A program made the translations under genes and the position numbers. The notes under the pieces were generated by a model. It made no database searches, was not told the origin of the DNA, and was given only the letters and a program-made list of their open reading frames with translations. DNA of 64,000 nt, from NCBI GenBank assembly GCA_963815195.1, contig CAWFGE010000010.1:352001-416000 (forward strand). Direction: 5' to 3'. Positions 5,893-53,827 of this stretch are shown here, one piece after another. This DNA is from an uncultured Planctomycetaceae bacterium (GTDB lineage: Bacteria; Planctomycetota; Planctomycetia; Planctomycetales; Planctomycetaceae). Position 1 is the first letter of the stretch, and each line of letters starts with the position of its first letter.

Positions 5893-5998
5893 TTGGTTTG
5901 AACATTTAAGGATATTCGTTTGCTGGAGCACTCGTGAGTCATCTGCCGGCTTACACCGGCCGCTCGCCTGGTCTAAAGAAGTCATCGAAAGACAAATC

Positions 5999-7280
5999 AT
6001 GTTGGACCTTCAATTCATTTGCGAAAACAAGGAGGCCGTCGCGGAGAACTGCCGAAACCGCGGCGTCGCCGTGAATTTGGATCGGCTGATCGACCTTCGC
6101 GAGGCCCGGAACCAATTGATCGTCGAAGGCGATCAGCTTCGGCACGAGCAGAAAGAACTCTCGAACGAGATCCCCAAAACCAAAGACGCCGACAAAAAGC
6201 AGGCCCTGATTGCCCGCGGCCGAGAGTTGCGGGAGCAAATCGCCACGAATGAAGTCGCCCAGAAGGAATACGAGGCCGAGCTGCGGATCGAGCAGGCCCG
6301 CATTCCCAACATGACCCACCCCGACTCCCCCGTGGGCCGCACGGAAGAGGACAGCAAGACGCTGCGGACGTGGGGCGAGATTCCCAAGTTCGATTTCGAG
6401 CCGCTCGATCACTTGGACCTTGCGGAAAAGCACGATCTGATCGATCTGGAAGCCGGGGCGCGGGTGGCGGGGCACGGGTTTTATTTCCTCAAGAACGAAG
6501 CCGTGCTTCTCGAAACCTCGCTCGTACAATATGCCTTGCAGAAATTGCGGGCCGCGGGTTTCACGTTGATGAGCACGCCCGACATCGCCCGGGATGAAGT
6601 CCTCGAAGGCATCGGCTTTATTCCCCGCGGCGAGGAGGCTCAGAATCTATTCCATCCAGGACACCGATTTGAGCCTGGTGGCGACGGCGGAAATCACGCT
6701 GGGCGGTTCGCTCAAAGATCAAGTTTTGGACGTGTCGAAACTGCCCATCAAGCTCGCGGGGCTGTCGCATTGCTTCCGCACCGAAGCCGGCGCCCACGGC
6801 CGCGCCACGCGCGGGATTTACCGAGTCCATCAGTTTACGAAGGTGGAGATCTTCGGCTTCACCGCCCCCGATCTGGAACTGTCCAACCCCTTTCACGAAC
6901 AAATCGTCGCAATCGAGGAAGAGATTTTCCAAGGCCTGAAAATTCCCTACCGGGTGATCGACACCGCCACCGGCGATTTGGGCGGGCCGGCTTACCGCAA
7001 ATTCGATCTGGAAGCCTGGATGCCCGGGCGAGGCGAAGGCGGTGCGTTTGGCGAAGTGACCTCGGCGTCCAACTGCACCGACTACCAGGCCCGCCGATTG
7101 GGCATTCGCTGCAAATCGCCCGACCGCAAAGGCACAGAGTTCGTGCACACGCTCAACGGCACCGCCGTCGCCAGCACCCGGGCGATCATCGCCATCCTGG
7201 AAAACTACCAGCAAGCCGACGGCAGCATCCTCATCCCCGAAATCCTCCGCCCCTGGGTCGGCGAGGAAAGAATCGGCTAA
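5999..7280 (+). CDS. serS: Serine--tRNA ligase with a single frameshift near 6644 (probably a sequencing error)
   Basis: MLDLQFI..., RIPNMTHPDSPVG and DHLDLA lie in ORF 5999; ATAEI, CFRTEAG, RGIYRVHQFTKVE, KFDLEAWMPG and HTLNGTAVA lie in ORF 6594..7280. There is an extra A in CAG-A-ATC-TAT. Confidence 0.95.
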
Positions 7281-7344
7281 CAGGGAGAGGTCTAAGCTAA
7301 GGAGTTGGCCGCAGATTCTCGTGGCCCGCACGTGGTGGAACGGA

Positions 7345-7375
7345 TATAATGGCCTAATGAGCAATCCGAGGAGGA
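7345..7375 (+). promoter_or_regulatory. Putative -10 box and RBS of the zinc-ribbon/NTase cassette
   Basis: TATAAT at 7345-7350; GAGGAGG upstream of ATG 7382. Confidence 0.5.
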
Positions 7376-7381
7376 AGAATC

Positions 7382-7921
7382 ATGCACCGCGTGCGAATTG
7401 TCATTCAGCACAATCCTGACGATCCCGCTGACGACCTGCGGTGGGCCGCCCGATTGCGGCGCGACCTCTGGGCGCACTCCTCAGTGGAAATCGATCCCGA
7501 CAGCGCAAAACACGCCACGCACCGAAATGGCGAGGGGAATGCCTACTTCGAATTTGCCACCAACCATTTGCCTGAAGTTCGTCGCATCGTCGAGGATTAC
7601 GGATACAAGGACCGCGCAAGCGTCGAAGTGATTCAGGAGGGGCAGGGCACGGAATGCGTGAATTGTGGTTATATCTCTCCAGAATTGGCAACGGTCTGTC
7701 CGAATTGTCATTTTCGCGATATTGGACCGTGTCCTTACTGTAACAATGAAGTGGCCCGATTAAACTACATTTCGATCGCCGGCGATTTGTTTCAATGTCC
7801 GATTTGCCACCACCGGGTCCGGTTCCAATTCCATGATCCTTTGTTCGATGCGAGCGGCCATTACAATCAGCCGTTGGTTCGCGTCAATCCCGCCGAGGCG
7901 CCGGTCGAACATGATGTTTGA
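7382..7921 (+). CDS. Hypothetical protein with a double zinc ribbon (four CxxC)
   Basis: CVNC, CPNC, CPYC, CPIC; strong RBS; 3' end overlaps the next start codon. Confidence 0.8.
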   Translation: MHRVRIVIQHNPDDPADDLRWAARLRRDLWAHSSVEIDPDSAKHATHRNGEGNAYFEFATNHLPEVRRIVEDYGYKDRASVEVIQEGQGTECVNCGYISPELATVCPNCHFRDIGPCPYCNNEVARLNYISIAGDLFQCPICHHRVRFQFHDPLFDASGHYNQPLVRVNPAEAPVEHDV

Positions 7922-8609
7922 CGAGCACGGCCATATCCTCCTCACACCGCGCGAAGTCAGGCAGCAGGCGTTCGATGACCCAGACGGACTCATCAATCAT
8001 GCCCTGATGCCTGGCACCCCTCTCGGGTTTCCCACGTATACCCAATATGCCCGGTTCGTTGATTATCTGTCCGCGAAGTTGGGAATCCATCCACATCACT
8101 TCCTGTTTCGAGGAAGCACAAAGATCGGGTTTAGTATTTCGCCCAATCGGGAAAAGAAAAAAACGTGGCGCAGGTTTGGAGCGGGTTCGGATTTGGACTT
8201 GGCCATTGCCGATCCGCATTTCTATGCGACGGTGGATGAGGCAGTTCGCCGGCATGACCGTATCTCAGAAAATCGCAAGCAAGTTTTCCAATATCGAAGC
8301 GGGACGGAGTTTTATAAGTACGAGAACCGCATCCATCAAAAGGGCCGGCACGATTGCTATCGGTTCTTCGATCTTCCGCGCGGCCTCTCCTGCCTCACCG
8401 AACTCGAGGAAGTTTTGAGGAATGCACCGGTTGACGATTGTTGCGTTTTTAAATTCGTCGAATTCAAGGCGTTCATTTTCCGCGACCGATGCGCGGTGCA
8501 TCGGCGGTATCATACCGACTTGGATGATCTTCGCCGCGGACTGACGACAAAATTCGATCGCCTGCCCGAACCGCCCGAGGAACCTTTCGGGAATGACGAA
8601 TTGGTTTAG
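7911..8609 (+). CDS. Putative Pol-beta superfamily nucleotidyltransferase
   Basis: hGS...DxD signature: FRGSTKIGFSISP...FGAGSDLDLAI. ATG 7911 overlaps the upstream gene by 11 nt. Confidence 0.7.
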   Translation: MMFDEHGHILLTPREVRQQAFDDPDGLINHALMPGTPLGFPTYTQYARFVDYLSAKLGIHPHHFLFRGSTKIGFSISPNREKKKTWRRFGAGSDLDLAIADPHFYATVDEAVRRHDRISENRKQVFQYRSGTEFYKYENRIHQKGRHDCYRFFDLPRGLSCLTELEEVLRNAPVDDCCVFKFVEFKAFIFRDRCAVHRRYHTDLDDLRRGLTTKFDRLPEPPEEPFGNDELV

Positions 8610-9024
8610 CGCAATGTTGCGACTGTTGCCGGACCAAGTCTCGACTTCAACCGGTGCCGCCTGAGGTATTGAAAGTGAGCTTAGAGGTTTGAGGATTGGA
8701 AGCCAGCGTCCCATTGCCAAATCCCCGTCCTCCATCCTCCATCCTCATTCAGGATGTTGGCTGCCGGAAAGCACCCGGCGGACGGTCTCGCATTTCTCCC
8801 GACGTCGCGATTGGGCATCCTTCCCTTTTTCTTGATGACCTTTGGAAACTTCGCCGAACAATCCGCGCGCGCGCCTGATTGTAAGCTAAGTTTCATTGCC
8901 TTGTCGTTATGCCCAGTCCACCCGATCCGTTTTATCGATTAAAGCGGTCTTACGGGCGGCGGGCGGCGACTGACATTCCTCCTGGTGCGTCACGGCCCCG
9001 ATTCAAGATAAAGGATCAACGAAT

Positions 9025-15288: not shown

Positions 15289-17154
15289 ATGTCATCCATG
15301 CGGACCACGACCAACCCGGCGGCTCAAAATGCGTTGCGCGAGGTGCTGGAGAGATACTGGGGATACGATCAATTCCGCCCCCTGCAACAACGGGCGATGG
15401 AACATGTGCTCGCGGGCAGGGATTCGGTGGTCGTCCTGCCCACCGGCGGCGGGAAATCGCTGTGTTATCAGGCCCCGGCGATGTGCATGGACGGCCTCGC
15501 GGTGGTCGTCTCGCCGTTGATTTCCTTGATGAAAGACCAGGTGGACGCCCTCAAGACCAACGGCGTTCCGGCGGAGTACATCAACAGCTCCCAGTCGCCC
15601 AGCGAAAAACGAAACGTCGCCGAGGACATCCGCGCGGGCCAGCTGCGGCTCTTATACGTGGCTCCTGAACGGCTCGTGCAGCCGCAGACAATGTCTTTCC
15701 TCCGGTCGGCGGGCTTGTCGTTCGTGGCCATCGACGAGGCCCACTGCATCAGCGAATGGGGCCACGATTTTCGCCCGGAATACCGCGACCCTCAAAATCC
15801 TCCGGCTGGCGTATCCAGAGATTGGGATTCACGCCTACACCGCCACCGCGACCGAGCGGGTCCGCCGGGACATCGCCCAGAACCTGGGCCTCAATCAGCC
15901 TGAAGTCCTCGTGGGCTCGTTCGACCGCCCGAACTTGATCTACAGCGTGGAACGCCGGCGGGACCGGGTCAGCCAGATCCGCGGAGTCCTCGATCGACAC
16001 CGGGGCGATTCCGGGATCATCTATTGCATCAGCCGCAAAAACGTGGACTCGATCAGCGAGGAACTCAATGCCCTCGGCTACAAAACCCGCCCCTACCATG
16101 CGGGCCTCGCGGACGACGAACGCAAGCGGAACCAGGAAGCCTTCATCGAGGAAAAAGTCGAAACGATCGTGGCCACGGTCGCGTTCGGGATGGGGATCGA
16201 CAAATCCAACGTGCGGTACGTGATCCACGCGGGCATGCCCAAGTCGCTCGAGAACTACCAGCAGGAAAGCGGCCGCGCGGGACGCGACGGCCTGGAAGCC
16301 GAGTGCTGTCTGCTCTACTCCGGCCGCGATCCGCAAATCTGGCGAAAACTCACCGAGGAGGACTCCCCCGAATCGCGGGCCGCCTCGCTTAAGTCGCTGG
16401 AGGCGATCGACGATTTTTGCACGGGCGTGAGTGTGCCGGCATCGGCAGTTGGTGGAACATTTCGGGCAGGTCTGGGACCGCGAATCCTGCAATGCCTGCG
16501 ATGTCTGCCTGGGCGCAGTTGGACCTGGTCGATGACGCCCTGATCATCGGCCAAAAGATTCTGTCGTGCGTCGTTCGCCAGCAGCAGCGGTTCGGCGGCG
16601 AATACACGGCCCAGGTCCTCAAAGGGGCCAGGCTCAGACGCATCCTCGACAACGGCCACGACCAACTCAGCACGTTCGGGCTTCTGGCCGATCACGACAA
16701 GCGGATCATCCGCGATTGGATCGAGCAGCTCGCCAGCCAGGGTTTCCTCGCGAAGGAAGGCGACTACAATGTATTAAAGGTTACGCCCGCCGGTCGGCAG
16801 CTTTTGAAAGGCGAACAAACGCCCCGCCTGCTCAAGCCGCAAGAGCGGGCCCGCAAAAAGGAGGCCGCGGCGGTCGAGACGGACGCTTGGGAAGGCGTGG
16901 ATCGGGACTTGTTCGGGGTGCTGCGAACGCTCCGCCGGGAGCAAGCTGAGGCCCGAGACATTCCCGCGTATATCGTCTTCAGCGATGCGGCCCTCCGGGA
17001 CATGGCCCGCCGGCGGCCCTCCACGTTGGAAGCCTTCCGCACGATCCGGGGCGTCGGCGAAAAGAAGCTCGACGACTACGGAGACGTCTTTGTGGACTGC
17101 CTCATTAAATACTGCCAGGACCACCGCCTCACAATGGATGTCCGCCCGAAATAA
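15289..17154 (+). CDS. recQ: ATP-dependent DNA helicase RecQ, frameshifts near 15788, 16432 and 16514
   Basis: PTGGGKSLCYQ, DEAHCISEWGHDFRPEY, ATVAFGMGIDK and QESGRAGRDG; the Zn module CRHRQL...CNACDVC is in a third frame; RQC and HRDC (IPAYIVFSD) domains follow. Confidence 0.93.
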
Positions 17155-50101: not shown

Positions 50102-51832
50102 CTACTTTGAGTCCGACGGCTTATTCTCTCCAGTTTCTAAAGGCTCCAGCGTGATCTCGGTGAATTGAAATACCGCCGGATGTTGGCCGCCGATTTTCAG
50201 TGGATCAAGAGACTGTGAAGGCATCCGGTGCAGTTTGGAAAAATCGCCGGACCAGGAATAAATCTCTTGATCGTTCGCCGTCACGCGCAAGCGGTCCTTT
50301 CGCACCCAAAACGCCAAATCGACCGCCAACTGCGGCGTTAAAACACCGCCAAACCGCTTCGGCAAGTCGGGATTGATCCCGGCAAACATTCCCTCGTATT
50401 TCGGCAACGTGGCGTCGATGAAAAAATTAAACCGCGAGCTTCCCGAAGCCAATCCCACCAGCAATGCACCCGGTTGGCGCACGAATCGCTCCACGCGCAT
50501 TCTCAAGCAATAGCTTTCGGGGAGGGGAGATGACAGAGGGATGGGCATTCCGAAAGAGCGGGCATCCTTCTGCGGCTGTAATCCGATAATCGCGTCGCCT
50601 ACTCTTCGCCAGTTTCCGTATTCGGATTGAGAAGCGTTAAGATTCGCCATCAAATCGATGCGATGGGGCTTTGCATCCGGCTTGCCCGCTTTCTCTAAAC
50701 CCGACGGATCGGCGGTTTTTGAGACTTTGGCATCTTGAGATCCTCCCGTGCCGGAGTCTTGAGGAAAGTGATTTATCGCGAACCAAAGCCCCAATCCGCC
50801 CACGACCAATAGGACGGCCAAGCCCATCCAAAGGGGTTTCCCCAAGCGGAGGGATGGTGACGGCGTCGTTTCCTCATCCGGCGAATAGGGGATCGTCTCG
50901 GCGAACGCGGCGGAATCGGATTGGGAATTCTCTCGCCAATCGGTCTCCAGTTTGCGGAGCGATGTTACGACGGCATCCGCGGAAACGGGGCGGTCTTCCC
51001 GCGACTTTTTTAATAGTTTGTCAATAAAACTTGATAACGATTCGGGAACGGCCGGATTGACCACGCGAGGCGAAAGTTGTTGTTCCGAAGTAATCGCCGC
51101 GATCACGCCGAAGATGCCCTCGGCTTGAAACGGCAATCGCCCCGTCACCATCCGATACAACACGCAGCCGAAGCTGAACAGATCCGACCGCTCGTCGACG
51201 GGCTCGCCGCGGGCTTGCTCCGGCGACATGTAAGCCGGCGTGCCCAGCAAGGCGCCGTCCTGAGTCAGTTTCGTTAAGTTTCCGGCAGCATGGTAAGCCA
51301 AACCGAAGTCGAGGATCTTGATCCGCCCGTTCGAGCCAATCCAAATGTTCGCGGGTTTGATGTCGCGATGGATGACTCCCGCCGCGTGTGCCGCGGCGAG
51401 GCCCCGCGCGATTTGTTTTCCAATGGAAAACGTCTGCGCCACATTGGCCCGCCGATCGGGCCTGAGCCATTCTTCGAGCGACTTGCCTTCCAAATGTTCC
51501 ATCGCAAGGAACGGCGTGCCCTGGTCCTCGCCGACTTGATAAATCGTGACGATGTTTTCGTGTTTGAGCGCGGCCGCCGCGCGGGCCTCGCGGAAAAAGC
51601 GCACCCGCGCTTCATCGTCCTCGGCAAAATTCTGGTTGAGCGTTTTCAGAGCCACCGTGCGATTGAGTTGCTCGTCCGTCGCCAGATAAACGCAGCCCAT
51701 GCCGCCTCGGCCCAGCATGCGTTTGATGCGATAGGGCCCCAGCATCTCCGGCGAAGCCCCCGCGGAATGTTCCGTGGCCATCTCGCCTGATGAGTTGGGC
51801 GAAGGCGGTTTCAAATCGAAATCCGACGACAC
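50102..51832 (-). CDS. Transmembrane Ser/Thr protein kinase, copy B
   Basis: GRGGMG, HRDIKPAN, DFG, GTPAYMSPE, TM, beta-rich C-domain; GTG start aligned to copy A. Confidence 0.92.
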   Translation of the reverse strand: MSSDFDLKPPSPNSSGEMATEHSAGASPEMLGPYRIKRMLGRGGMGCVYLATDEQLNRTVALKTLNQNFAEDDEARVRFFREARAAAALKHENIVTIYQVGEDQGTPFLAMEHLEGKSLEEWLRPDRRANVAQTFSIGKQIARGLAAAHAAGVIHRDIKPANIWIGSNGRIKILDFGLAYHAAGNLTKLTQDGALLGTPAYMSPEQARGEPVDERSDLFSFGCVLYRMVTGRLPFQAEGIFGVIAAITSEQQLSPRVVNPAVPESLSSFIDKLLKKSREDRPVSADAVVTSLRKLETDWRENSQSDSAAFAETIPYSPDEETTPSPSLRLGKPLWMGLAVLLVVGGLGLWFAINHFPQDSGTGGSQDAKVSKTADPSGLEKAGKPDAKPHRIDLMANLNASQSEYGNWRRVGDAIIGLQPQKDARSFGMPIPLSSPLPESYCLRMRVERFVRQPGALLVGLASGSSRFNFFIDATLPKYEGMFAGINPDLPKRFGGVLTPQLAVDLAFWVRKDRLRVTANDQEIYSWSGDFSKLHRMPSQSLDPLKIGGQHPAVFQFTEITLEPLETGENKPSDSK

Positions 51833-51882
51833 GGGACGATCCTTAAAAAGACGTGAAGGAGTTGCAACCGAGAACGGATATC

Positions 51883-52017
51883 TCAACGTTCACAGCATTC
51901 TGCGATATAAAGCGAATAGTTCGTGTCGTCAAGCAGGCGAACATTGGCCGAGTTGTCGAGGCTCACCTCAACAATGTCATCCGCAGATAAATCCAATTCA
52001 TAATGCACGTAATTCAT
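51883..52017 (-). pseudogene. Truncated DUF1883 copy (N-terminal half)
   Basis: Read manually: MNYVHYELDLSADDIVEVSLDNSANVRLLDDTNYSLYIAECCER*, clearly homologous to 49729-49988. Confidence 0.75.
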
Positions 52018-52105
52018 CGGCGTGCCTTTCACTCGGTTTGTATTTCGAACCGGGATTCTGCTTCTGTTTTAGCTGTGTCTTGTCATCACACCAATAGTTT
52101 GTGCA

Positions 52106-53827
52106 CTATTCCGTATCGGGTGACGTGTTCACTGCCGTCTCCACTGGCTCCAGCGTGATCTGGGTGAATTTGAAGACTGCCGGATTATGGCCGCCGATCA
52201 TGAGCGGCTCGTCGGATTGTCCAGGCAATCGCTTGAGTTGAGCAAAATCGCCCGACCAGGAATAAATCTCTTGATCGTTCGCGGTGACCCTCAGGCGATC
52301 TTTTTGCACCCAGAATGCCAGATCGACCGCCAGCCGAGGCGTTAAAACGCCCCCAAGCCGTTTCGGCGAATCCCAACCGATGCCCGCGTGCATTCCCGGG
52401 TATTTCGACGAAGTGGCATCGATGAAGAAGTTAAACCGCGAGTTTCCAGAAGCCAGGCCCACAAGCAATAAACCGGGCTGGCGCATATAGCGCTCCACCC
52501 GCAGCCGCAGACAGTAGCTTTCCGGAAGCGGACGGGAAAGGGGAACGGCCAAGGCAAAGAACGGGGTCTTATTCTCAGGCTGGGATCCCAAAATCGCATT
52601 CCCTTCTTTCCGCCAATCTCCCTTTTCGGCTTTGGAGACATCAATCGCCTCGATCAAATCGATGCGGTTGGCGCCTTCTTTCGGCTGATTCACCTGTTGC
52701 GGATCGATCTGTTTCTTTTGGCCATCTTGTGAGCCGCCGCCGATCTCCGGTTTGGCCTTCGTGCTTCCAATCGCATGCCAAATCCCCCATCCGCCAACGA
52801 GCGCCAGGACAATCAACCCGATCCAGGCCAATTTTCCAAAACGAAAGGCGGGTAATGCGGTTGCATCGTCATCGGAGGGTAAGGCAATGGTGTCATCGTT
52901 CCCGGTGGAGTTCGATGGGGAATTTTCCCGCCACTCGGCATCCATCTCTTTGAGGGCCGTCAGCACGGCGTCGGCGGAGGCGGGCCGGTCGTCGCGAGAT
53001 TTTTGGAGCAGATCGTCGATCAAATTCGAGAGCCGTTGGGGAACGGCCGGATTGACCACGCTCGGCGAAAGCTGTTGTTCCGATGTGATCGCCGCGATCA
53101 CGCCGAAAATGCCCTCGGCCTGAAACGGCAATCGCCCCGTCACCATGCGATACAGCACGCAGCCGAAGCTGAACAGATCCGAGCGCTCATCCACCGTCTC
53201 GCCGCGGGCTTGCTCGGGCGACATGTAAGCCGGCGTGCCCAACAAGGCCCCGTCCTGGGTGAGTTTGGTCAGGTTCCCGGTACTGTGATACGCCAGGCCG
53301 AAATCGAGGAGCTTGATCCGCCCGTTCGTGCCAATCCAAATGTTCGCGGGTTTGATGTCGCGATGGATCACCCCCGCCGCATGGGCGGCCGCCAAGCCTC
53401 GCGCGATTTGTTTCCCGATGGAAAACGTCTGCGCCACGTTCGCCCGCCGATCCGGCCTGAGCCACTCTTCGAGCGATTTGCCTTCCAGATGCTCCATCGC
53501 GAGAAACGGCGTGCCCTGGTCCTCGCCGACTTGATAGATCGTGACAATGTTCTCGTGCTTGAGTGCGGCGGCCGCACGGGCCTCCCGGAAAAACCGCACC
53601 CGCGCTTCGTCATCCTCGGCAAAATTCTGGTTGAGCGTTTTGAGAGCCACCGTGCGGTTGAGTTGCTCGTCCGTCGCCAGATAAACGCAGCCCATGCCGC
53701 CCCGGCCCAGCATGCGTTTGATGCGATAGGGTCCCAGCATCTCCGGCGAAGCCCCCGCGGAATGTTCCGTGGCCATCTCGCCCGATGAGTTGGGCGAAGG
53801 CGGTTTCAAATCGAAATCCGACGACAT
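52106..53827 (-). CDS. Transmembrane Ser/Thr protein kinase, copy A
   Basis: Kinase domain almost identical to copy B; linker, TM and C-domain diverged. Confidence 0.92.
   Translation of the reverse strand: MSSDFDLKPPSPNSSGEMATEHSAGASPEMLGPYRIKRMLGRGGMGCVYLATDEQLNRTVALKTLNQNFAEDDEARVRFFREARAAAALKHENIVTIYQVGEDQGTPFLAMEHLEGKSLEEWLRPDRRANVAQTFSIGKQIARGLAAAHAAGVIHRDIKPANIWIGTNGRIKLLDFGLAYHSTGNLTKLTQDGALLGTPAYMSPEQARGETVDERSDLFSFGCVLYRMVTGRLPFQAEGIFGVIAAITSEQQLSPSVVNPAVPQRLSNLIDDLLQKSRDDRPASADAVLTALKEMDAEWRENSPSNSTGNDDTIALPSDDDATALPAFRFGKLAWIGLIVLALVGGWGIWHAIGSTKAKPEIGGGSQDGQKKQIDPQQVNQPKEGANRIDLIEAIDVSKAEKGDWRKEGNAILGSQPENKTPFFALAVPLSRPLPESYCLRLRVERYMRQPGLLLVGLASGNSRFNFFIDATSSKYPGMHAGIGWDSPKRLGGVLTPRLAVDLAFWVQKDRLRVTANDQEIYSWSGDFAQLKRLPGQSDEPLMIGGHNPAVFKFTQITLEPVETAVNTSPDTE

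Follow-up and report, generated by a model that had tools for sequence, protein, structure and literature searches.

A conserved gene pair of Planctomycetia that encodes an uncatalogued nucleotidyltransferase and a zinc-ribbon partner, and its possible role as a toxin-antitoxin module

Small nucleotidyltransferases (NTases) of two-gene systems have repeatedly given new chemistry, including tRNA tailing, protein oligo-AMPylation, oligo-dA and p3diT signals. Here, we examine a cassette of 2 overlapping genes in a stretch of 64,000 nucleotides from an uncultured Planctomycetaceae bacterium (assembly GCA_963815195.1, contig CAWFGE010000010.1, positions 352,001 to 416,000 of the forward strand), hereafter called the window. 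Gene 1 encodes a protein with a ferredoxin-like domain followed by CxxC motifs, and gene 2 encodes a putative NTase of the Pol-beta type. Among the systems that come closest, MenAT1 is described in PMC10435456 and PMC11375011 as an NTase toxin of the DUF1814/AbiEii family with a binding antitoxin, and T39 of the toxin MenT1, 2 residues before the DxD motif, is phosphorylated. In HEPN-MNT systems, the minimal nucleotidyltransferases (MNTs) are the antitoxins, as stated in PMC13000451. In Clover (CloA/CloB) and Hailong (HalA/HalB), the partner is an HD dNTPase (CloA) or a membrane channel (HalA) that is toxic without the NTase, according to PMC12265719 and PMC13434031, the former of which also assigns a [D/E]h[D/E]..h[D/E]h triad to CloB. 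The cassette studied here is a real and uncatalogued two-gene module with an atypical NTase active site and a confidently predicted complex, and it represents a system of known kind built from new parts. Judged from structural models and sequence comparisons, there is about an even chance that it is a type II-like toxin-antitoxin (TA) pair, with the NTase as the putative toxin and the gene 1 protein as the binding antitoxin.

The 2 genes were found to be conserved as a pair, which the original prediction had left to be examined. Scanning genomes with the NTase profile yielded 26 loci, which included 1 distant match in Stenotrophomonas and 25 close matches (24 titled Planctomycetota and 1 an unassigned bacterium), and gene 1 was located directly upstream of the NTase gene at all 25 close loci. 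When metagenomes were scanned with gene 1, 56 loci were obtained, where the recognizable NTase genes started -14 to +15 nucleotides (nt) from the gene 1 stop codon. In a sample of 401 Planctomycetia genomes, gene 1 was present in 19 genomes (20 cassettes from four families), and the NTase had been lost at 2 of the 20 loci. The reciprocal search with the NTase matched 24 of the same 401 genomes, 17 of which contained 18 close-family loci, each accompanied by gene 1, while 7 contained distant members only, without gene 1. The cassette was present in 1 of 60 relatives and in none of 3 genomes from the same genus (85% to 94% complete), and the narrow profile matched none of 400 other genomes in a phylum-wide sample. 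A sample of 350 genomes from another class contained 2 wide-family matches. The nearest tree neighbor of the NTase in this cassette, with 77% identity, came from a locus titled Gemmataceae (L001). The patchy distribution across Planctomycetia suggests that the cassette has spread horizontally. No close relative was found among 54 candidate stretches in viral contigs or in a search of plasmids.

Nonsynonymous substitution rates (dN) were well below synonymous rates (dS) for both genes in comparisons of close pairs, which shows that both are under purifying selection. The pairwise distances of gene 1 and gene 2 were also correlated (rho 0.71 across 37 cassettes, with none of 2000 permutations reaching as high a value), and this shows co-inheritance, not co-evolution.

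No family in Pfam, NCBIfam or PADLOC matched either of the 2 genes above the cut-off, nor any of 52 close and 48 wider NTase homologues, and PADLOC 2.0 gave 0 families for either gene at an expectation value (E) of 1 or below. Among the 48 wider homologues, 47 had no PADLOC match at E ≤ 0.01 and one had a weak match to LmuB. The only PHROGs match was to phrog_32008, a family whose function is unknown, with E values of 7e-4 for gene 2 and 8e-11 for a DUF262-partnered relative. The expectation that the pair would be unlike any named system was thus borne out in the curated libraries. No paper on this pair, or on the NTase-DUF262 pair described below, was found among titles and abstract openings, and the supplements of a comparative-genomics study may list the family. 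The homologues of the 2 genes in a word-indexed database (counts in Table 1) were labeled hypothetical or left nameless, apart from a few zinc-ribbon guesses.

The gene 2 product had been taken for a Pol-beta-type NTase on the basis of its GSTKIGFS and SDLDLAI motifs, which correspond to residues 68 to 75 and 93 to 99. The model of the protein, built from 52 sequences, had a predicted template modeling (pTM) score of 0.90 and a high mean predicted local distance difference test (pLDDT) score, as given in Table 1. In a fold search against 48,161 chains, ranks 1 to 4 and 8 were MNTs with low Z scores of 3.2 to 4.7, and the top matches were 1no5_B (Z 4.7, root mean square deviation [rmsd] 3.7, 93 aligned residues), 8xeh_E (3.8), 1wot (3.5), and 5yep_A (3.5). 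Foldseek gave no match at E ≤ 0.001 for the modeled cassette proteins in PDB, gene 2 included, or in BFVD, and 3 profiles of gene 2 retrieved only chance-level matches from the PDB sequences. In the Atlas cluster ranked 25th for gene 2, PF01909 was found on 11% of the members. All 52 close and all 48 wide homologues share the residues G68, S69, D94, and D96, and the fold ranks taken together with these motifs make the assignment to the Pol-beta/MNT fold a reasonable one. The proposed identity thus holds for an MNT-like core with invariant GS and DxD motifs, but the Z scores are low and the third carboxylate is not conserved. We assume, from knowledge of the fold and not from coordinates, that the region of position 186 is the usual site of this carboxylate. 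The strand at residues 185 to 190 lacked a conserved acid, and position 186 was occupied by K, S, T, R or N in the close homologues and by S, K, N, T or A in the wide ones. The protein also contains a helical insertion at residues 102 to 177, with conserved R140, K/R144, and R151.

For gene 1, an AlphaFold2 model built from 45 sequences (pTM 0.65; pLDDT in Table 1) showed an N-terminal ferredoxin-like domain followed by a cysteine-rich half. The domain, which spans residues 1 to 86, had been overlooked in the first reading of the sequence. Its best fold matches were CutA, PII, S6, and ACT (Z ≤ 7.3), a generic fold likeness, and its sheet could bind nucleic acid. The four CxxC motifs noted originally were recovered at C92/95, C106/109, C117/120, and C139/142, and this half gave DZR and rubredoxin-like matches below the cut-off. 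Comparisons with the PDB sequences gave only zinc-finger matches driven by the cysteines. The usual partners of small Pol-beta NTases had been thought to be absent, and the ferredoxin-like and ribbon architecture, with no match to HEPN or helix-turn-helix (HTH) domains, agrees with this. No catalytic or membrane motif was recognizable in the family-library and fold searches. The invariant residues in 38 diverse homologues included six of the eight cysteines, E57, R112, and Y129. One natural variant of only 88 amino acids (L136) has no ribbons and is located directly ahead of an intact NTase gene. Since it retains the ferredoxin-like domain, we consider this domain to be the constant part of gene 1. 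It was also noted that the L136 cassette (L136:1495-2393) is inserted between 2 sufB/sufD-like genes. No fused form of greater length was found for the N-terminal domain, which is weak evidence.

The 2 proteins were predicted to form a complex with an interface (ipSAE) score of 0.81 (0.84, 0.81, and 0.76 in the individual runs), as compared to 0.00 for the best of 3 controls. Of 157 solved complexes, 116 reach the mark used for this score, as do 2 of 215 mismatched pairs; with our own alignments, these figures are only roughly valid. The contacts agreed by at least 92% between runs, and the partner pLDDT was at least 91. On the gene 1 side, the predicted interface consists of helix 1, the loop at residues 36 to 44, residues 58 to 61, and the second ribbon (126 to 137), and on the NTase side of residues 90 to 92 in the loop just before DxD, 119 to 139, 151 to 157, and 180 to 186. 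Because no comparable complex turned up in the PDB sequence searches, the score is unlikely to come from the memory of the model. Binding between the 2 proteins is supported by the model, as a prediction.

To describe how the cassettes have decayed, 79 distinct cassettes were retained after removal of duplicates, 15 of which were located at contig ends and dropped, so that 64 were scored. Hand placements were made for L024, which was moved due to a stop at codon 4, and for L049 and L131, which were counted as whole copies of L008 and L083. The scored set comprised 38 intact cassettes, 18 in which the NTase alone was broken, 5 in which gene 1 alone was broken, and 3 in which both were broken. 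The asymmetry of 18 to 5 had a length-weighted binomial p of 0.026. Deletions, truncations or replacements accounted for 11 of the 18 NTase-only lesions, three of them replacements by other TA-like genes, and the other 7 were point lesions that may represent assembly errors. The TA[TC]AAT box was kept upstream of 9 of the 18 orphan copies of gene 1. Since 18 cassettes keep gene 1 next to a broken NTase, gene 1 is tolerated alone, and the polarity of HEPN-MNT, Hailong or Clover is therefore disfavored. In three of the 5 gene 1 lesions, the ferredoxin-like domain was left whole, namely in L050 (stop at codon 86), L136, and L023, which has an insertion after about codon 123 and belongs to a genome that, according to the record title, also contains an intact second cassette (L018). 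Taken together, the decay pattern is suggestive of an NTase toxin, though not decisive.

A few of the loci were unusual in other respects. An apparent fusion protein of 602 amino acids at L023 was rejected, as it was due to an insertion element, which we take to be IS66-like. At L071, L074, and L088, a truncated NTase gene downstream of gene 1 was followed by other TA-like genes, as if the site had been reused; these included Panacea as identified with Pfam, and genes that are presumably DUF4160/DUF2442-like and VapD-like. At L135/L152, the NTase lies within an open frame of 1421 amino acids that runs into a POTRA-containing gene, either a fusion or a lost stop codon.

The wider gene 2 family comprised 533 representatives at 50% identity (full HMMER scan, E ≤ 0.001). 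The distant members keep the GS..GFS..P and SDxD motifs and a YRDW-like strand, and the third acid is absent in these too. A DUF262-like gene was located directly downstream of the NTase in 6 of 7 distant Planctomycetia matches and in one plasmid copy, and the loci in which the NTase directly precedes a stand-alone DUF262/GmrSD_N gene were L157-L160, L162, L164, and L139. These pairs share the wider NTase family with the cassette, as judged by the same motifs and strand, but differ in that the NTase comes first and the partner is a DUF262 protein of 330 to 400 amino acids. The DUF262/GmrSD_N partners matched PADLOC NsnA with E values of 1e-26 to 1e-43. A third partner type was a gene with a transglycosylase domain (PF00912), located upstream of and overlapping a wider-family NTase gene (L141:759-2118). 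In an NTase tree of 43 rows, all 21 zinc-ribbon-partnered NTases fell into one branch (100/99). This branch also contained 4 proteins whose context is unknown, and the 7 DUF262-partnered NTases were all outside it; the tree was midpoint-rooted with several long branches, and branch membership was read without a formal clade test. It was also observed that L158 has a DNA-methylase-like gene upstream of the NTase-DUF262 pair, that a Stenotrophomonas locus (L026:5944-6993) contains two tandem NTase-like motifs, GS..SDLD and GGS..NDLD, and that a GmrSD_N (DUF262) gene of the present genome is followed by an insertion sequence (IS) integrase gene (L106:7037-8962).

A TA module in which gene 1 restrains the NTase fits both the predicted complex and the decay pattern, and the antitoxin-first gene order with presumably coupled translation was counted in its favor. 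The original prediction of a TA or anti-phage pair with a zinc-ribbon antitoxin or sensor survives as an uncatalogued pair compatible with a TA function, but the ribbon itself appears dispensable, as seen in L136. According to the TA reading, the 2 genes would be transcribed as an operon from their own promoter box, with gene 1 made first and gene 2 coupled to it. Helix 1, the 36 to 44 loop and the second zinc ribbon of gene 1 are predicted to grip the NTase at the helical insertion (119 to 139), the 151 to 157 loop and the pre-DxD loop (90 to 92), and the bound gene 1 protein would be likely to hold the enzyme inactive. A freed NTase may then transfer NMPs to an acceptor that the cell needs, and the analogy with MenT would make an RNA 3' end the most likely one. 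Release might, more speculatively, occur when gene 1 is lost or displaced during stress or phage infection.

Several observations weigh against this reading. The residues G68, S69, D94, and D96 were not among the listed contacts of the predicted interface, the missing third carboxylate makes the chemistry of gene 2 uncertain, the closest folds are those of MNTs that act as antitoxins, and the family-library search gave no match to an HTH or ribbon-helix-helix domain in gene 1. In L024, gene 1 has a stop at codon 4 with the promoter box kept and the NTase intact, and in L017 the 5' half of gene 1 is deleted next to an intact NTase; such null alleles argue against strict toxicity, unless polarity silences the NTase. 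At L093, part of the ferredoxin-like domain is deleted, and the NTase is intact as far as the contig reaches. Furthermore, most loci were found via gene 1, which favors the detection of orphan gene 1 copies, and the unbiased sample gave only 6 versus 2 (p 0.25). When an upstream gene is lost, the promoter is lost with it, and the same asymmetry arises without toxicity. Some frameshifts may also be artifacts of assembly, as the only serS gene of this genome is frameshifted.

Some of these observations would be accounted for if the cassette encoded a two-subunit enzyme, in which gene 1 acts as an activating sensor or substrate recruiter and the active heterodimer stays silent until triggered, with the exposed beta-sheet of gene 1 binding RNA or a phage cue. 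We regard this as possible but considerably less probable than a TA pair. It accounts for the L017 and L024 loci and for GS and DxD residues that are unlisted in the interface. It would also suit the second conserved set of gene 1 residues outside the interface (R5 in 37 of 38 homologues, R48 in 36, Y55 in 35, E57 and R112 in all 38) and an NTase that consists of a minimal core without a substrate-recognition domain, like HI0073 of the two-protein NTase represented by the top fold match 1no5. It does not, however, by itself predict the 18 to 5 asymmetry, and the L136 variant, if intact, works without R5, R48, and both ribbons. The complex could also be an accessory enzyme with no role in conflict, a niche cargo that nucleotidylates a small molecule such as an antibiotic or metabolite or that serves in metal or redox stress. 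This seems improbable to us, although the cassettes are mostly solitary among housekeeping genes, show no clear enrichment near defence genes, and have no match in viral contigs or plasmids. The DUF262/GmrSD_N proteins that accompany the sister NTases match NsnA, 26 of 64 cassettes are broken, suggesting a cost, and no metabolic neighbor is conserved. The enrichment in defence islands that was to be examined was not clearly borne out and is weak at best. The 177 genes next to other cassettes (no more than two on each side and within 2.5 kb, from our own coding model and annotated with Pfam) were mostly housekeeping genes, and 13 belonged to defence, TA or mobile-element families, as compared to 5 of 150 control genes (p 0.15), or 16 of 177 if ambiguous families were included (p 0.04). 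The families were counted by eye, and the controls were 150 of 158 genes in 20 regions of this one genome. Single loci were nevertheless located beside such genes, namely type I restriction-modification (L020), BrxL (L025), and TA genes (L006, L088).

A guard logic like that of HEPN-MNT, Hailong or Clover would make gene 1 the toxic component, restrained by an NTase that either nucleotidylates gene 1 or produces an inhibitory oligonucleotide. The fold matches to MNT antitoxins (8xeh_E and 5yep_A), the predicted direct contact, the varied partners in the wider family (DUF262, transglycosylase), as for signal synthases, and the toxicity of CloB and HalB mutants in PMC12265719 and PMC13434031 are all in line with it. 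A constitutively toxic gene 1 is nevertheless incompatible with the 18 cassettes in which gene 1 is intact and the NTase broken, half of which (9) retain the promoter box, and the absence of a recognizable catalytic or membrane motif in gene 1 also makes this polarity decidedly unlikely. Hardly any weight can be given to a local regulator tied to serS or tRNA-Ser, as hinted at by the adjacency to serS in this genome. The enzyme MenT3 reportedly prefers serine tRNAs. No seryl-tRNA synthetase gene was found among the 177 flanking genes, the cassette was not found in the 3 same-genus genomes, which have other genes, coding for ABC transporters, after serS, and the cassette has a promoter box of its own. 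The serS gene is very probably a chance neighbor.

If the TA reading is true, the HEPN-MNT logic would be inverted, with an MNT-like enzyme as the weapon, clamped by gene 1. The NTase family has no curated Pfam model, no close solved structure and no third acid, and it occurs with at least 3 partners that are unrelated. With 2 small, soluble proteins that are confidently modeled and predicted to bind, the pair offers a directly testable entry to a branch of 533 representatives and to planctomycete conflict systems. More doubtful is the broader proposal that this is the first toxin of a widespread, structurally uncharacterized Pol-beta branch without the third carboxylate, in which a ferredoxin/zinc-ribbon guard senses phage or stress via its second surface and rewiring to DUF262 or transglycosylase partners has created a new nucleotidylation defence family with a new product or target.

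The features of the cassette are listed in Table 1. The TATAAT box and the strong ribosome-binding site (RBS) reported originally were both located, and the coordinates of the gene overlap agreed; the homologues use the same start methionine, and an overlap of -11 recurs at many loci. The TATAAT motif is rare in this genome, with 481 sites on the two strands of 8.87 Mb, and a sigma-70 scan gave no site on the + strand that would indicate a -35 box upstream of gene 1. A TA[TC]AAT box was found 11 to 65 nt upstream of gene 1 at 33 of 73 cassette loci, which are related and not independent, as compared to 42 of 2510 control genes in this genome, and these boxes clustered mostly at -36 to -46. The -10-like box at cassette loci is above chance level. 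No inverted repeat at the cassette promoter was among those listed. The cassette had been described as richer in AT than its flanks, and the shift is real but mild (6th to 10th percentile of 2363 genes of similar size). The GC content of gene 1 and gene 2 was 0.547 and 0.530, as compared to 0.60 to 0.62 in four flanking genes and 0.60 in the genome, and the GC content at third codon positions was 0.60 for both genes, as compared to 0.74 to 0.81 in the flanking genes.

Table 1. Features of the two-gene cassette, numbered from the first position of the window
Feature	Position	Strand	Remarks
-10-like box TATAAT of gene 1	7345-7350	+	From sequence; upstream box kept in family; presumed function
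RBS AGGAGG	7369-7374	+	From sequence; ATG 7 nt further on
Gene 1	7382-7921	+	179 amino acids; predicted binding partner, likely antitoxin; 242 homologues; model pLDDT 89.4
Gene 1 ferredoxin-like alpha/beta domain, residues 1-86	7382-7639	+	Model; helix 1 and loop 36-44 in predicted NTase interface
Gene 1 four CxxC motifs, C92-C142	7655-7807	+	Read as two zinc ribbons; metal pairing presumed; residues 126-137 in predicted interface
Gene 2	7911-8609	+	232 amino acids; Pol-beta/MNT-like nucleotidyltransferase, uncatalogued family; likely toxin; 94 homologues; model pLDDT 94.8
11-nt overlap of gene 1 end and gene 2 start	7911-7921	+	Presumed translational coupling
Gene 2 motif G68-S69…G73-x-S75…P78	8112-8144	+	Homologue alignment
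Gene 2 motif S93-D94-x-D96, metal-binding	8187-8198	+	Homologue alignment

The cassette (window 7281-8773) is located at a synteny break. In the three same-genus genomes, the cpaF/tad block was found on a different contig from serS with other neighbors, and the genes that flank serS and cpaF/tad in these genomes map elsewhere in the present genome. No tRNA gene was found in the window, no convincing terminal or target-site repeats were identified at the cassette, and no integrase was seen next to it. The serS gene (window 5999-7280, + strand), the sole copy found in the genome, is disrupted by a frameshift of one base near 6645 and is intact in a relative (G001); the frameshift is most likely an assembly error. 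A RecQ-like helicase gene (window 15289-17154) is apparently split over three frames, which also suggests assembly frameshifts. Short intergenic elements resembling repetitive extragenic palindromes, with dispersed copies in the genome and its relatives, were noted at window 5927-5972 and 8711-8749, the latter just downstream of the cassette. Elsewhere, window 50105-53776 (- strand) contains two tandem Ser/Thr-kinase-like genes of 559 and 556 amino acids with identical first 50 residues.

In comparison with described systems, the closest solved folds of gene 2, with GS and DxD motifs, were those of the HEPN-MNT type VII TA systems (MntA/HepT) and of HI0073/HI0074 (1no5). MNTs have about 100 to 130 amino acids and 10 residues between GS and DxD, whereas gene 2 has 232 amino acids, 24 residues from S69 to D94, a large helical insertion, and no conserved third carboxylate. 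The partner is ferredoxin-like with CxxC ribbons and not a HEPN protein with an R-phi-xxx-H motif, and the putative polarity is reversed. Clover and Hailong resemble the cassette in that they consist of two genes, one for a small NTase of the Pol-beta type and the other for its partner, but gene 1 encodes neither an HD dNTPase nor a membrane channel, and the third acid of the CloB triad is missing in gene 2. Neither HalB nor MenT was among the rows of the gene 2 fold search, which does not exclude likeness. As for the cyclic-oligonucleotide-based CBASS systems, no CD-NTase match was obtained in PADLOC, Pfam or NCBIfam, no effector neighbor was conserved at other cassettes, and CdnD (6p82_B), with the two-lobed CD-NTase fold, aligned to the gene 2 model at Z 2.7 (rmsd 4.4, 125 aligned residues). 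Membership in MNT-HEPN, MenAT/AbiE, CBASS, Hailong, and Clover was rejected on the basis of missing profile matches, partner type, and motif differences. With regard to MenAT/AbiE, none of the 52 cassette NTases matched AbiEii/DUF1814 in Pfam at E ≤ 0.1, and TglT (6j7q) matched the gene 2 model weakly in Foldseek (E 3.9, template modeling score 0.10) and was not among the fold rows with Z ≥ 2. Position 92, two residues before DxD, is G in 18, S in 7, D in 7, A in 5, and E in 3 of the 52 NTases, with no conserved Ser or Thr as in MenT1, and the partner fold is unrelated to the MenAT1 antitoxin. By analogy, the cassette would nevertheless most likely work like MenAT1, with which it shares the two-gene organization with the antitoxin first, an NTase with a DxD motif, and a small, unrelated partner that binds the enzyme directly, here as predicted from the model of the complex.

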